A DNA stretch of 14,130 nt from a virus, in the UHGV virus genome UHGV-0306157; one strand, 5' to 3'. The notes beneath the pieces are model-generated. The model ran no database searches and was not told the origin of the DNA. It saw only the letters and a list, made by a program, of their open reading frames with translations. Shown here one piece after another: positions 7,580 to 12,850 of the stretch. How positions within the stretch are numbered: position 1 is the first letter of the stretch; each line of letters begins with the position of its first letter. Position numbers and translations under genes: made by a program.

Positions 7580-7999
7580 ATGGAAAAAGAAAACGAAAAA
7601 ATTGCCGCTAGTAGGCTCAATGACAAAATTGCAATGCGTCTTAAAGAGCGCAGGCAGAAGCTTGGTTTATCTCAAGGAAAACTTGCTGAAATCTGCGGAT
7701 GGACGCAATCGCGTATAGGTAACTATGAGGCGGGCAGCAGAAATGTTGGAGTGCATGACGCTGTCGTATTGGGAAAGGCACTTGGCATATCTCCTCCTGA
7801 GCTCCTCTTTGGAGAACAGGAATCTTCTGAATTGTGGTTAAATGAATCCCAACGAAAACTTCTTGAGTTGTTTAACCAGCTACCGGGCTCAGAACAACAA
7901 CGAATGATTGAGCTATTTGAAGTCCGGCTAAAAGAAATCGATGAGTATGTAGAAAAATATTTGAGAGGCAGGCTTAAAGATAATCCCCCACCGGAGTAA
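7580..7999 (+). CDS. racR: prophage repressor, HTH XRE family (RacR/cI-like), 139 aa
   Basis: HTH LGLSQGKLAEICGWTQSRIGNYEAGSRN near the N-terminus with a C-terminal extension; divergent from the Cro-like gene; AAGGA RBS; followed by a strong terminator. Confidence 0.6.
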   Translation: MEKENEKIAASRLNDKIAMRLKERRQKLGLSQGKLAEICGWTQSRIGNYEAGSRNVGVHDAVVLGKALGISPPELLFGEQESSELWLNESQRKLLELFNQLPGSEQQRMIELFEVRLKEIDEYVEKYLRGRLKDNPPPE

Positions 8000-8029: not shown

Positions 8030-8054
8030 AGCCCGCTATCAGCGGGCTTTTTTT
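8030..8054 (+). terminator. Rho-independent terminator downstream of the repressor gene
   Basis: AGCCCGCT (8030-8037), loop ATC, AGCGGGCT (8041-8048), then a run of T to 8054. Confidence 0.8.
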
Positions 8055-8125: not shown

Positions 8126-8305
8126 AAGCATATCCAAACAACGCCCCACCAGAGAACGGCAGGACAATACCTCGAGTTATCCAGCCACTGAACAGGGCTA
8201 AGTAGCCAGCCTGAGGCATACGAACATGACGGCAGTTGTTGATTGATACAAAGCGCAGTAGATAAAACGTTCCGCCACCCGGCGTTAAGGGGAAATGAGG
8301 TCAAC

Positions 8306-8458
8306 ATGGATACTATCGATCTTGGCAACAACGAATCTCTGGTATGTGGCGTGTTTCCCAATCAGGACGGCACATTCACCGCCATGACGTATACCAAAAG
8401 CAAATCGTTTAAAACCGAAGCTGGCGCACGTCGCTGGCTTGCCAAAAATACCAGCTAA
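8306..8458 (+). CDS. ydaF: small Rac-prophage protein (YdaF/DUF1391-like), 50 aa
   Basis: ATG at 8306 preceded by GAGG (8297-8300); product MDTIDLGNNESLVCGVFPNQDGTFTAMTYTKSKSFKTEAGARRWLAKNTS matches my recollection of K-12 YdaF; the longer track ORF from 8243 lacks an RBS. Confidence 0.6.
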   Translation: MDTIDLGNNESLVCGVFPNQDGTFTAMTYTKSKSFKTEAGARRWLAKNTS

Positions 8459-8866
8459 ACCATTTATTGGATTAATTCAATATTCTTGCTGTAGGGGTAT
8501 AGCCGAGGCCACCAAAGCCCGGAGGTGGTGAAATAAAACCGGGCACAACACGAAGGCGCATTTCCGGTATCCATAAAGAGTCGGTCTTGTCTGTTAAATT
8601 TAAATGGTGGGAGTGCGCCTCCGGTTGTAAATAACGACATTGCTATGTGTAGTCTTTGGCGGCATCAGTTCTACTCCGTGGCTGCCCTGCCGCCCCTTTT
8701 TAAAGTGAATTTTGTGATGCGGTGAATGCGGCTAAGCGCACGCGGCACAGTTAAAAGCATCAGTGTTATGGGTGGATTATCCGGCGTTAATTGTTAACTG
8801 GTTAACGTCACCTGGAGGCACCAGGCACCGCATCGACAAAATTCATTTGTAAAAATGGAGATAATT

Positions 8867-9088
8867 ATGATTGCTCATCACTTCGGAACTTATGAAATAC
8901 CACGTCAGTGTGTGACTCCTGGCGATTATGTTCTTCATGAAGGTCGGACATATATCGCCTCGGCAAACAATATTAAAAAGCGAAAACTTTATATTCGTAA
9001 CCTGACTACAAAAACATGCATTTCTGACTGCATGATTAAAGTCTTCCTCGGTCGTGATGGTTTACCTGTAAAGGCGGAGTCATGGTGA
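8867..9088 (+). CDS. kilR: KilR, FtsZ-inhibiting cell-division toxin of Rac, 73 aa
   Basis: [49 protein letters not shown]...[15 protein letters not shown] matches recalled KilR; GGAG RBS (8857-8860) sits 6 nt before the ATG at 8867; the track start at 8855 overlaps that RBS. Confidence 0.75.
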
Positions 9089-9258: not shown

Positions 9259-9332
9259 TTAACTGACTATCCGAAACTGAATTTATGCCAGCAATGGCAG
9301 GGATTCGCTCAACCTTAATTAAGGAGAAAAAC

Positions 9333-9608
9333 ATGATTACCAGTTATGAAGCCACTGTTGTTACTACTGATGACATTGTTCACGAAGTCAGCCTGGAAGG
9401 AAAGCGTATTGGCTACGTGATTAAAACAGAAAATAAAGAAACCCCTTTCACTGTGGTTGATATCGACGGTCCATCAGGCAACGTTAAAACACTTAACGAA
9501 GGCGTCAAAAAAATGTGCCTGGTGCATATCGGAAAGAATCTGCCCGCAGAAAAAAAAGCCGAATTTCTGGCAACTCTGATTGCAATGAAATCAAAGGGTG
9601 AAATCTGA
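9333..9608 (+). CDS. racC: RacC protein, 91 aa
   Basis: ATG at 9333 with AAGGAG (9321-9326) 6 nt upstream; product MITSYEATVVTTDDIVHEVSLEGKRIGYVIKTENKETPFTVVDIDGPSGNVKTLNEGVKKMCLVHIGKNLPAEKKAEFLATLIAMKSKGEI; sits directly upstream of recE as in Rac. Confidence 0.75.
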   Translation: MITSYEATVVTTDDIVHEVSLEGKRIGYVIKTENKETPFTVVDIDGPSGNVKTLNEGVKKMCLVHIGKNLPAEKKAEFLATLIAMKSKGEI

Positions 9609-9709: not shown

Positions 9710-12700
9710 ATGAGCACCGATAAACAAGTTTACCCACTGTATTACGAAGCAAAAAATGACAAAGTAAGAAAATGTCTCGGTATTAAAGGCGGTTTCTACT
9801 GGGCTGAAGCGAAAAAATTATCCATTGCCATATCCCGTGGTGCTGTTGCGATTGACGATGCTGGCTACGATGAAGATGACTTTAAAAAACCTGTTCGCGT
9901 CAATTTGCCCGTTGTTGATGACCTTCCACCAGAGGGCGTATTTGATACGGAATTCTGCAACCGTTACGAAAAAGGCGGAGAAGATGGCATCACAATGGTA
10001 TTTATCGCGCCCTCATCCTCTGCGCAGGACAAGCCAGCCAGCACTGACAATACCAATGTTAATGGCGAAGACATGACGGAGATTGAGGAGAATATGCTAC
10101 TCCCGATTTCCGGTCAGGAGCTGCCCATTTGCTGGCTTGCTCAACACGGCAGTGAAAAACCGGTAACGCACGTTTCACGCAACGAACTACAGGCATTACA
10201 CATTGCACGAGCTGAAGAACTACCAGCTGTTACTGCCCTGGCTGTTTCCCACAAAACCAGCCTGCTCGACCCGCTGGAAATTCGCGATCTCCACAAACTG
10301 GTGCGTGATACTGACAAAGTTTTCCCTAATCCTGGTAATTCAGACCTGGGACTGATGACTGCTTTTTTCGAAGCATACCTGGGCGCTGACTACACCGATC
10401 GCGGTCTGCTGACAAAAGAGTGGATGAAAGGAAATCGTGTTTCACGCATCACCCGCACGGCTTCCGGTGCTAATGCCGGTGGAGGGAACAAAACCGATCG
10501 CAATCCGAATTTAGTACACACCTTCGATACGCTGGATGTGGAGATTGCAGCGGCCACACTTCCGATGGATTTTAATATTTATGAAATTCCGGGCAGCGTT
10601 TATCGTCGCGCAAAAGAAGTCGTCCAGAAGAAAGAAAGTCCGTTCAAAGAATGGTCCGCAGCACTTCGCGCAATCCCGGGTATCCTGGATTATTCCCGCG
10701 CCGCTATTTTTGCACTTATCCGGAGCGCACACCCTGAGTTTTATCATTACCCGGGACGCCTTCAGGGGTATATCAACGCCTATTTAACGGAGACTGATCA
10801 CGAGAACCCTACCGAGGAAACTCTCGCTGCTGCACGACATACACCGGAAAAAGATATCCTGGAAGAAGTTAACCGCGAACTGGCTGCTGAATGCGAAACA
10901 GAAGAAGAAAAAAATAATGAGGAAAAATCACAACCGTCTGACGCAATGGCAGATGAACAGGCAACGACTGAAGCAATGGAGCCGGATACAACTGAACATC
11001 GCCAGGACACGCAATCGCTGGATACTCAGGCACAGATAGATCCGGTTAATCAGGTAAAAGTTACCGCTGACGAAGTAAACAAAATTATGCAGGCAGCCAA
11101 TATCAGTCAGCCTGACGCCGATAAGTTGCTTGCTGCCTCTCGCGGAGAATTTGTTGCAGGGATTAGCGACCCGAATGATCCGAAATGGGTGAAAGGGATT
11201 GAAACCCGCGATTCTGTGAACCAGAACCAGCAAGAAACGGAACAGAACGACCCAAATACGCAACAAAACGAGCCAGAAACGAAACAGCCTGAGCCAGTAG
11301 TGCAACAACAGGAAACGGAGAAAGTTTGCACCGCCTGCGGTAAGGCTGGCGGCGGCAACTGTCCTGACTGTGGCGCGGTGATGGGCGACGCAACGTATCA
11401 GAAAACCTTTAATGAAGAAAATCAGAATGAATATCAGGAAAAAGGTCTGGAGGAAATGGAAGGTGCTGAACATCCGCACAAGGAGAACGCTGGCAGCAAT
11501 CCGCATTGCGATTGCAGTGATGAAGCTGGTGAAACGACAGCACCTGTAGTAACTGAAATCATGTGGCCGTCATATTTCGAGCCTGGCCGCTATGAAAACC
11601 TCCCGAACGAGGTTTATCACTCCGCCAACGGAATAAGCAGCACAATGCTGAAGGATGCCCGCATCAGCCTGATGTATTACCACGGACGGCACATTGCCGG
11701 AACTATTCCGGGCGAGGAAAGTGATGCATTGCTGCGTGGGCGGATTATTCACAGCTATGTTCTGGAAACGGATAAATTCGCTGATGAGTATGCCATTCCG
11801 GTACCGGTTCCTGAATATGTGGTTACTACTTCTAACGAACTGATCGCCATCATTAAAAAACACAATGCCAGTCTGCCAGCACTGATGACACCAGAGCAGA
11901 TGAAAGAGTGGATCGAAAGCTACAACAGCACTCTTATACAGCCACTGTCGGTAAGTGCCGGGGCCGAAGAAACAGGCATCCTTTACGGTTCGCTTCTGGA
12001 GGAATTCCGGCGTATTCCTGAGGGGGAAAAACACACAGCATCAGCAATGAAAGCCTGTATTAAAGAATACAACGCAAGCCTCCCTCCTCTGCTGAAAACC
12101 AGTGGAACACGAGAGCAGCTCCTGGAGCAAATTGAAACTGTAGATCCAGAACTGGCAAAAAAAGAACGTGCTAAATCTTTGCCTTACAACATCAGTGGCA
12201 CAAAAGAGCAATTAACCGAAATCGCCCGGAAAATTCGCCCGGAACTGGTAACACTGGAGGACTGGCAAAAACGCCAGCAAGAAGAAAACGCCGGGAAAAC
12301 GTTTATCAGTCCGGATATGTATGAACAGGCAAAAAATATTCACGCAGCACTGCAAAACAATACTGATGCAGCAAGGCTACTCAACCACCCGGATCGCAAA
12401 TCTGAAATCAGCTATTTCGGGTTTGATGAAGAAACCGGGCTGGAAATCAGGGTCCGTCCTGATATCGAAATCCGGCTGCCATACGAAAGCATTTGCGCCG
12501 ACGTGAAGTCAGTCAGCCTCGGTTATGTGCGACAGGAACGACTGAAAGATCGCCTGCACCGTGAAATTATTGAACGTGATTATCACCTCAGCGCAGCAAT
12601 GTATTGCGATGTGGCAAACCTGGACAAATTTTTCTGGATCTTCGTCAACAAAGATGCTGGCTATCACTGGGTGGCCGTCGTGGAAGCCTCGCAGGAACTC

Positions 12701-12850
12701 CTGGAACTTGGTCGACAGGAATATCGCCGGACACTACGACAGATAAACGAAGCTCTGGAGACAAACAACTGGCCAGCACCGATTACCGAAAGTTATACCG
12801 ACGAATTAAACGACTTTGATCTTCGTCGTCTTGAAGCACTGAGCATCTGA
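9710..12850 (+). CDS. recE: RecE-like exodeoxyribonuclease VIII (long acidic linker, C-terminal PD-(D/E)XK-like nuclease region), 1046 aa
   Basis: Position upstream of recT-like and lar; N-terminal segments (NTNVNGEDMTEIEENMLLPISGQELP..., CTACGKAGGGNCPDCGAVMGD) match what I recall of RecE; C-terminal RPDIEI ... ICADVKSVS resembles a PD-(D/E)XK core; central low-complexity E/Q/N/T-rich region explains the many spurious minus-strand ORFs. Confidence 0.7.
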   Translation: MSTDKQVYPLYYEAKNDKVRKCLGIKGGFYWAEAKKLSIAISRGAVAIDDAGYDEDDFKKPVRVNLPVVDDLPPEGVFDTEFCNRYEKGGEDGITMVFIAPSSSAQDKPASTDNTNVNGEDMTEIEENMLLPISGQELPICWLAQHGSEKPVTHVSRNELQALHIARAEELPAVTALAVSHKTSLLDPLEIRDLHKLVRDTDKVFPNPGNSDLGLMTAFFEAYLGADYTDRGLLTKEWMKGNRVSRITRTASGANAGGGNKTDRNPNLVHTFDTLDVEIAAATLPMDFNIYEIPGSVYRRAKEVVQKKESPFKEWSAALRAIPGILDYSRAAIFALIRSAHPEFYHYPGRLQGYINAYLTETDHENPTEETLAAARHTPEKDILEEVNRELAAECETEEEKNNEEKSQPSDAMADEQATTEAMEPDTTEHRQDTQSLDTQAQIDPVNQVKVTADEVNKIMQAANISQPDADKLLAASRGEFVAGISDPNDPKWVKGIETRDSVNQNQQETEQNDPNTQQNEPETKQPEPVVQQQETEKVCTACGKAGGGNCPDCGAVMGDATYQKTFNEENQNEYQEKGLEEMEGAEHPHKENAGSNPHCDCSDEAGETTAPVVTEIMWPSYFEPGRYENLPNEVYHSANGISSTMLKDARISLMYYHGRHIAGTIPGEESDALLRGRIIHSYVLETDKFADEYAIPVPVPEYVVTTSNELIAIIKKHNASLPALMTPEQMKEWIESYNSTLIQPLSVSAGAEETGILYGSLLEEFRRIPEGEKHTASAMKACIKEYNASLPPLLKTSGTREQLLEQIETVDPELAKKERAKSLPYNISGTKEQLTEIARKIRPELVTLEDWQKRQQEENAGKTFISPDMYEQAKNIHAALQNNTDAARLLNHPDRKSEISYFGFDEETGLEIRVRPDIEIRLPYESICADVKSVSLGYVRQERLKDRLHREIIERDYHLSAAMYCDVANLDKFFWIFVNKDAGYHWVAVVEASQELLELGRQEYRRTLRQINEALETNNWPAPITESYTDELNDFDLRRLEALSI

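Follow-up and report, generated by a model that had tools for sequence, protein, structure and literature searches.

A DicF-family small RNA and a folded leader in the spacer upstream of kilR in a Rac-like prophage

Two prophages of Escherichia coli K-12 have an annotated small RNA (sRNA) gene at equivalent places: dicF of Qin lies between ydfA-ydfB-ydfC and dicB, and kilS of Rac lies in the 5′ UTR of kilR. Qin DicF binds Hfq; RNase E generates its 5′ end, whereas its 3′ end arises either by termination, which gives a 53-nt form, or by RNase III, which gives one of 72 nt, and it represses ftsZ and pykA via its 3′ part and xylR via its 5′ end (PMC5069750). KilS was detected by RIL-seq in the kilR 5′ UTR and verified by northern blot (Bar et al. 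2021, PMC8175672); according to the same study it can be transcribed from a promoter of its own, and yncL is a reported RIL-seq partner. An Rfam-based list for EDL933 holds four DicF entries, one of them, DicF_3, 56 nt long (PMC5331693), which is also the length of the DicF-model match to K-12 KilS (L002 4411-4466). The third RNA that matters here is STnc100, a multi-copy prophage RNA of unknown function, copies of which are expressed in EDL933, one of them northern-verified (PMC5331693). Its relative PasD is an abundant Hfq-bound sRNA in EPEC (bioRxiv 10.64898/2026.05.13.724894).

The window, the whole 14,130-nt stretch of DNA that was analysed, is a Rac-like prophage. Its positions 8300-9000 are 99.9% identical to loci of the O157 strain 493/89, E. 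coli 2013C-4974 and others, and the locus of O55:H7 CB9615 has 99.7% identity to the window. Like K-12 Rac, the prophage adjoins ttcA. The genes of the operon follow each other in the order repressor, ydaF, sRNA and leader, kilR, ydaE, racC, recE, recT. Between the stop codon of a DUF1391 gene, which by synteny corresponds to ydfA in Qin and ydaF in K-12 Rac, and the ATG of kilR lies a non-coding gap of 408 nt (8459-8866). The first-pass annotation had described this gap as free of ORFs of 60 or more residues, and this is correct; the longest ORF is one of 58 aa with an ATG start, on the minus strand at 8464-8640. RefSeq records of the locus annotate no ncRNA in the gap, which therefore looks empty despite the DicF-family regulator and the leader that we describe here. 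Taken as a whole, the explanation that we consider highly probable is that the gap is a non-coding RNA module in the early-left operon of a Rac-like lambdoid prophage, made up of a DicF-family, Hfq-type sRNA and a processed, folded leader before kilR (Table 1).

Table 1. Coordinates of the features in and around the gap between the DUF1391 gene and kilR.
Feature	Position	Strand	Basis
RacR-like repressor gene	7580-7999		
ydaF/ydfA-like DUF1391 gene	8306-8458	+	RefSeq annotation of a 99.9% identical locus (L001); K-12 annotation
AT-rich sieB-less junction, 31 nt	8459-8489	.	Alignment; a convergent sieB occupies this position in K-12 Rac
Rac-type upstream leader / sRNA precursor	8490-8643	+	About 97% identity to K-12 Rac upstream of and into kilS
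DicF-family sRNA	8644-8701	+	Rfam RF00039, fold, terminator-like site, ftsZ duplex
Single-stranded 5′ part of the sRNA	8644-8657	+	
Hairpin of the sRNA; loop and 3′ arm are the anti-ftsZ sequence	8658-8694	+	
T-run of the sRNA, predicted intrinsic terminator	8697-8701	+	
STnc100-like structured leader, multi-branch, in the dicF-kilR spacer	8685-8874	+	Rfam RF02076
Long closing helix of the kilR leader	arms 8697-8724 / 8826-8854	+	MFE fold, consensus fold, inverted repeat I2
kilR, FtsZ inhibitor protein	RBS GGAG 8857-8860, ATG 8867, end 9088	+	Annotated kil/kilR, WP_000560227.1

The genes around the gap have some peculiarities of their own. Directly after the repressor gene, at 8030-8048 on the plus strand, there is a strong intrinsic-terminator-like hairpin of eight pairs, six of them G-C, followed by seven T; about 250 nt separate it from ydaF, and the ydaG of K-12 is not annotated there. 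The racC-like ORF (9285-9608) is intact in the window, with 107 aa from the first ATG; the annotation of the near-identical 493/89 locus gives it as a pseudogene with a frameshift. The recE ORF (9710-12850) encodes 1046 aa and exceeds in length both the recE of K-12 (2601 nt) and the one annotated with 2676 nt in the otherwise 99.9% identical 493/89 locus; a 3147-nt form occurs in Rac-SA53 and FEA3. The N-terminal region of RecE looks acidic, of low complexity and variable in length.

The first-pass annotation had suspected a small RNA in the gap and had proposed a covariance-model search. A gathering-threshold Rfam scan of the whole window yielded one hit above threshold, to DicF (RF00039), at 8644-8695 on the plus strand (60.9 bits against a gathering score of 48, E-value 1.5e-11), which is far beyond chance. 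Together with a position equivalent to that of dicF in the Qin annotation and of kilS in the Rac annotation of K-12, this bears out the suspicion. The match spans the full model (1-52 of 52) with all stem pairs canonical; for comparison, the model scores 76.7 bits on Qin DicF and 39.1 bits on K-12 KilS. A GGCGGCA...TGCCGCC hairpin with a following T-run, which had already been noticed in the first pass, is this same DicF match. Its arms lie at 8658-8664 and 8688-8694, it folds at -17 kcal/mol, and a terminator-like site was called at the hairpin and the UUUUU behind it. The hairpin and the two further motifs named in the first pass all exist, only their coordinates were slightly off: GTTAACTGGTTAAC had been placed at 8787-8800 and is found at 8793-8806, and CACCTGGAGGCACCAGG is located at 8809-8825. 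The window hairpin differs from that of Qin DicF by four substitutions and one indel, an extra C, and the two substitutions that fall in the stem preserve pairing (U.G to C-G and U-A to U.G). A scan of the GTDB species representatives for the DicF core returned only eight loci, those of Escherichia and Shigella together with four from assemblies or MAGs outside Escherichia.

Predicted duplexes of full-length RNAs with long targets were non-discriminating, shuffled sequences scoring nearly as well, and we used hairpin-only and seed-only tests instead. In these, the segment from the hairpin to the 3′ end of the window sRNA pairs with ftsZ from -29 to +2 at -27.2 kcal/mol, which was reached by 3 of 500 shuffles. 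K-12 DicF forms a duplex of -27.9 kcal/mol with the same target segment (0 of 500), whereas the KilS duplex is not significant (-22.8 kcal/mol, 37 of 500) and the class of short hairpins described below is at background. Compared to K-12 DicF, the window allele has lost one ftsZ-pairing position beside the start codon (U to C at 8672), has one U.G pair improved to C-G, and retains the pykA complement. Its 5′ end, in contrast, has lost the complement to xylR: K-12 DicF forms 13 perfect pairs with codons 2-7 of xylR (-20.3 kcal/mol, 3 of 500 shuffles), whereas the window 5′ end reaches only -10.5 kcal/mol (294 of 500). The xylR seed lies outside the Rfam definition, and its loss is a functional difference, not an exclusion from the DicF family. 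At the predicted 5′ end of the window sRNA, the nine nucleotides of CTATGTGTA (8643-8651) are perfectly complementary to the yncL 5′ UTR (-33 to -25; 44 of 2000 shuffles), with one position of which K-12 KilS forms a G.U wobble. Predicted duplexes (duplexfold) of KilS and of the window RNA with yncL were uninformative; only this exact 9-nt complement stood out, and we regard it as a lead only. For the sRNA of the gap, the analysis thus shows family membership, synteny, structure and in silico target complementarity; we are dealing with a known RNA family in a known context and with a minor allelic variant of it.

A three-way alignment of the window, K-12 Rac and Qin shows the gap to be a mosaic, in which the sieB-less junction is followed by a Rac-type segment (8490-8657, about 97% identical to K-12 Rac), a DicF-type hairpin and the leader common to all three (8697-8866). 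The equivalent of the KilS 5′ end is position 8607, and from 8671 on the window hairpin is of the DicF type; correspondingly, a megablast of 8600-8700 against KilS-type genomes gave alignments limited to positions 1-71 of the query. Full-length matches to 8600-8700, where a 5′ part of the KilS type adjoins a hairpin of the DicF type, occur in 86 of 5426 complete E. coli genomes, a set in which counts are inflated by laboratory K-12 derivatives. A simple sigma-70 scan called no plus-strand promoter in the gap. A possible extended -10 element, TGTTAAATT, is found at 8592-8600, and the identity to K-12 together with the statement on KilS transcription (PMC8175672) makes a KilS-type promoter possible.

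Across the phages and prophages compared, three classes of hairpin occupy this one position. The DicF type is found in Qin, phage Evi, mEp460 and the window, the KilS type in K-12 Rac, 666R9, 683R6 and Rac-SA53 (34-41 bits on the DicF model, below threshold), and a short perfect hairpin in phiSTEC1589 and PhiR5_2. The gene downstream of the hairpin module is kil in most of them and dicB in Qin and mEp460; canonical DicF thus precedes kil in phage Evi and dicB in mEp460. In phiSTEC1589-Stx1c (L016) and PhiR5_2 (L017), at about 1513-1780, the hairpin, an STnc100-like leader and kil lie downstream of the gene for the N antiterminator in the same operon, and the hairpin is a short perfect stem without ftsZ complementarity. 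E. coli FEA3 (L022 2425-2745) has a clean 123-bp deletion equivalent to window positions 8516-8638, which removes the KilS-type promoter and 5′-end region. Despite this deletion, the DicF-type sRNA and the folded leader remain 100% identical, and the upstream segment is therefore dispensable for the maintenance of the prophage.

The remainder of the gap is dominated by a single folded element. The region 8696-8870 folds at -61 kcal/mol, with a z-score of -5.1 and none of 200 shuffles as stable, which again is far beyond chance. The fold is closed by a helix of 26 pairs with small bulges, enclosing several hairpins, and a consensus fold of ten homologous spacers has the same closing helix and structure. 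In Rfam, the element matches STnc100 (RF02076) over the full model (1-206) with an E-value of 2e-8 and 44.3 bits, which does not reach the gathering score of 47; with the homologous spacers of Qin, K-12 Rac and phages, the model gives 28-44 bits. Of the consensus helices of STnc100, the leader forms the closing stem, the UUAAC stem and the CCUGG/CCAGG hairpin, one helix is marked non-canonical, and the independently computed MFE and consensus folds agree with the STnc100 stems. In the alignment to the model, the small hairpin shows a compensatory change from G-C to U-A. Both remaining motifs of the first pass fall within this fold: the GTTAAC repeat is contained in a 10-bp stem (8783-8792/8800-8809), and CCTGG...CCAGG is a 5-bp hairpin (8811-8815/8821-8825). 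According to the predicted structure, GTTAAC and CACCTGG belong as stems to a single folded leader and are not separate sites. In the 10-bp stem, two pairs covary, both partners being changed in K-12 Rac and in 683R6; this accounts for the absence of the second GTTAAC from K-12.

Within the overall explanation that we favor, this leader would be a processing and UTR element that the window has in common with the dicF-dicB spacer of Qin and that is distantly related to STnc100. A 72-nt form like the published one of DicF (PMC5069750) would have its end near 8715, within the 5′ arm of the closing helix, which points to the helix as a site for RNase III. By analogy with Qin, the 26-pair helix may thus be the RNase III substrate that separates the sRNA from the kilR mRNA.

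These elements suggest the following course of events, in which the route to the mature sRNA is modeled on that of Qin DicF. Once a RacR-like repressor is relieved, the operon transcript would yield the sRNA, and read-through would give kilR and the recET genes. The 5′ end of the sRNA would come from RNase E cleavage of the operon transcript; an alternative start near 8607 may be provided by the internal KilS-type promoter. The 3′ end would be formed by the sRNA's own intrinsic terminator or, in read-through transcripts, by RNase III cleavage in the closing helix, after which the kilR mRNA would retain a short leader immediately before its RBS. Given the complementarity of its hairpin loop and 3′ arm to the RBS region of ftsZ, the sRNA should block FtsZ translation, and KilR protein made from read-through transcripts would block FtsZ assembly. 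The result would be a two-layer division block on prophage derepression, as exerted by DicF and DicB in Qin, with the sRNA terminator limiting transcription into kilR. We infer the processing sites, promoter use, Hfq binding and ftsZ repression of the gap sRNA from its resemblance to these systems.

The precursor itself has a further predicted pairing. In the minimum-energy fold of 8459-8701, the terminator hairpin gives way to a duplex between 8494-8517 and 8654-8677, so that the yield of sRNA may depend on processing. The complementarity of the upstream segment to the 5′ arm and loop of the sRNA amounts to 75%, and the pair is among nine comparable inverted repeats within 460 nt. The precursor fold of Qin sequesters the 3′ arm of DicF, whereas that of K-12 Rac does not. 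The predicted duplex may be an antiterminator, a processing duplex or due to chance. Given the 75% complementarity, the nine similar repeats and the absence of the pairing from the K-12 Rac fold, we did not adopt it as a mechanism.

An absence that had been noted in the first pass bears on how the gap arose. The annotation had placed the exclusion gene sieB of K-12 Rac, correctly, in this region, and had failed to find it here. Indeed, in K-12 the gene is located between ydaF and the kilR leader, and tblastn and blastn searches with K-12 sieB against the whole window gave chance hits alone (best E-values 0.48 and 0.074), all of which lie outside the gap. Both K-12 Rac and O157:H7 86-24 have the order ydaF, convergent sieB, leader with KilS, kilR, and in counts over complete E. 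coli genomes, which are inflated by laboratory K-12 derivatives, the K-12-type sieB-leader junction, which is present at full length in 1370 of 5426, is about six times as common as the sieB-less junction, present in 230. All this would fit the gap being a functionless scar of a sieB deletion. However, the alignment with K-12 Rac, which had been suggested as a check, shows that a leader of about 380 nt is common to both, with sieB as an extra in K-12. About 380 of the 408 nt (8490-8866) are thus found beside sieB in K-12 Rac with about 97% identity, meaning that the non-coding leader exists with or without sieB, and the same 380 nt contain annotated or model-supported RNAs. The notion of a deletion scar is thereby refuted for the gap as a whole, as just the 31 nt of the sieB-less junction and the 3′ end of ydaF differ. 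The latter difference argues for a cassette polymorphism or exchange rather than a clean deletion, and a sieB-less phage, vB_EcoS-683R6, exists; we therefore give the scar very little probability. Right after the ydaF stop codon, the junction has a palindrome, TATTGGATTAATTCAATA (8465-8482), which forms a weak hairpin without a T-run. A small protein gene hidden in the gap, for which the 58-aa minus-strand ORF would be the candidate, is close to negligible as an explanation. This ORF has an ATG start, falls just below the cut-off of 60 aa and is open in K-12 Rac; yet its start codon is lost in vB_EcoS-683R6, it is frameshifted in Rac-SA53, part of it is removed by the FEA3 deletion, and RefSeq annotates it in none of the genomes examined.

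Two other explanations accept the RNA elements and assign them different roles. The hairpin could act purely in cis: as an intrinsic terminator or attenuator, it would restrict transcription running from ydaF into the toxic kilR, and the released RNA would have no role in trans. An attenuator for kilR was also among the suggestions of the first pass and is a reasonable one; the predicted intrinsic terminator of the sRNA is located upstream of kilR in the operon. The terminator-like site called at the hairpin agrees with a role in cis, as does the precursor fold, where the upstream segment and the 5′ arm of the hairpin can pair in the way of an antiterminator, although this alternative pairing is missing from the K-12 Rac fold. 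Moreover, related Rac-like phages carry different hairpins at exactly this position, of the KilS type or short and perfect, without significant ftsZ complementarity, and it follows from such plain hairpins in sister prophages that the position may require termination only. The window allele, however, keeps the DicF-type loop and 3′ arm, with 60.9 bits and a complementarity to ftsZ and pykA near that of the proven regulator, which makes a purely cis-acting element quite improbable. Qin DicF is documented for both attenuation and a role in trans, so that the two readings are not mutually exclusive. Alternatively, the main product of the gap could be a separate STnc100/PasD-like sRNA from 8697-8866, excised by RNase III or transcribed by itself, with its own targets and DicF as a mere neighbor. 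The full-length model match, the very stable fold, the expressed and partly northern-verified copies in EDL933 (PMC5331693) and the abundance of PasD in EPEC (bioRxiv 10.64898/2026.05.13.724894) speak for such an RNA. On the other hand, the match is below the curated threshold, our scan found no promoter before and no terminator after 8697-8866, and the element runs straight into the kilR RBS in the manner of a 5′ UTR, whereas canonical STnc100 and PasD have Q, stx and lysis genes as neighbors in the late regions of prophages. We consider a separate sRNA of this kind unlikely, and retain the DicF-family sRNA followed by a processed kilR leader as our explanation.

The mosaic structure allows this explanation to be extended, tentatively and with more doubt than confidence, to a natural chimera in which a KilS-type promoter and 5′ seed have been joined to a DicF-type anti-ftsZ hairpin, its targets being re-wired, and in which the STnc100-like leader is a separate device for kilR. 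In such a chimera, ftsZ and pykA may be kept as targets, xylR lost, and the KilS partner yncL gained or strengthened; the leader, bounded by the RNase III helix, would set the amount of kilR. If this were true, the swapping of seeds between prophage sRNAs would be an observable route of sRNA evolution.

The practical value of these findings is in the annotation of the locus. Some O55:H7, O157 and other E. coli have an additional, predicted DicF-type anti-ftsZ RNA in a Rac-like prophage, whereas most strains, including K-12 and O157:H7 86-24, have KilS at that position instead. The two DicF seeds can be exchanged independently, and both the dosage and the target range of DicF could vary between lineages; a new kind of system is not involved. 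DicF and its presence in multiple copies among the prophages of EHEC have been published, as have KilS and STnc100. We found no description of the mosaic allele or of the homology between the spacer and STnc100 in the accessible literature, and both are variations within known kinds.

Among the systems to which the locus can be compared, the Kil/DicB pL modules of the lambda type share the most general features: an FtsZ-directed killing gene, an early-left operon controlled by a repressor, the proximity to recombination genes and, in the relatives phiSTEC1589 and PhiR5_2, N upstream in the same operon. They differ in that an RNA inhibitor of ftsZ and a protein inhibitor of FtsZ are paired in Qin and in the Rac-like group; this pairing is not known as a feature of lambda. 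The leader resembles STnc100 in the GGUGAAU...CACC closing stem, the UUAAC stem and the CCnGG-AGGCA-CCnGG hairpin, but it is below the gathering score and its closing helix has 26 pairs as opposed to about 8. In addition, it is found in the early-left operon between the sRNA and kil or dicB, unlike the canonical copies of STnc100 and PasD in late regions.

With K-12 Rac KilS (b4833), the window has the orthologous locus in common, along with the prophage type, the 5′ part of the RNA, the putative promoter, the downstream leader and kilR. In contrast, the KilS hairpin, GGCGGCAUCAG...CUGAUGUCCGCC, is replaced in the window by one of the DicF type, KilS itself reaching only 39.1 bits with the DicF model and lacking significant complementarity to ftsZ, and sieB is adjacent in K-12. 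In comparison with Qin DicF, the hairpin has four substitutions and one extra C. The single-stranded 5′ part is UAUGUGUAGUC in the window and UUUCUGGUGACG in Qin, so that the validated xylR seed is absent; the precursor is of the Rac type, not of the ydfB-ydfC type, and the downstream gene is kilR, not dicB. What the window shares with Qin DicF is the model family, the hairpin architecture, the terminator, the anti-ftsZ and anti-pykA loop and 3′ arm, the position in the operon after a DUF1391 gene and before a gene for a cell-division inhibitor, and a folded downstream spacer that is about 90% identical.
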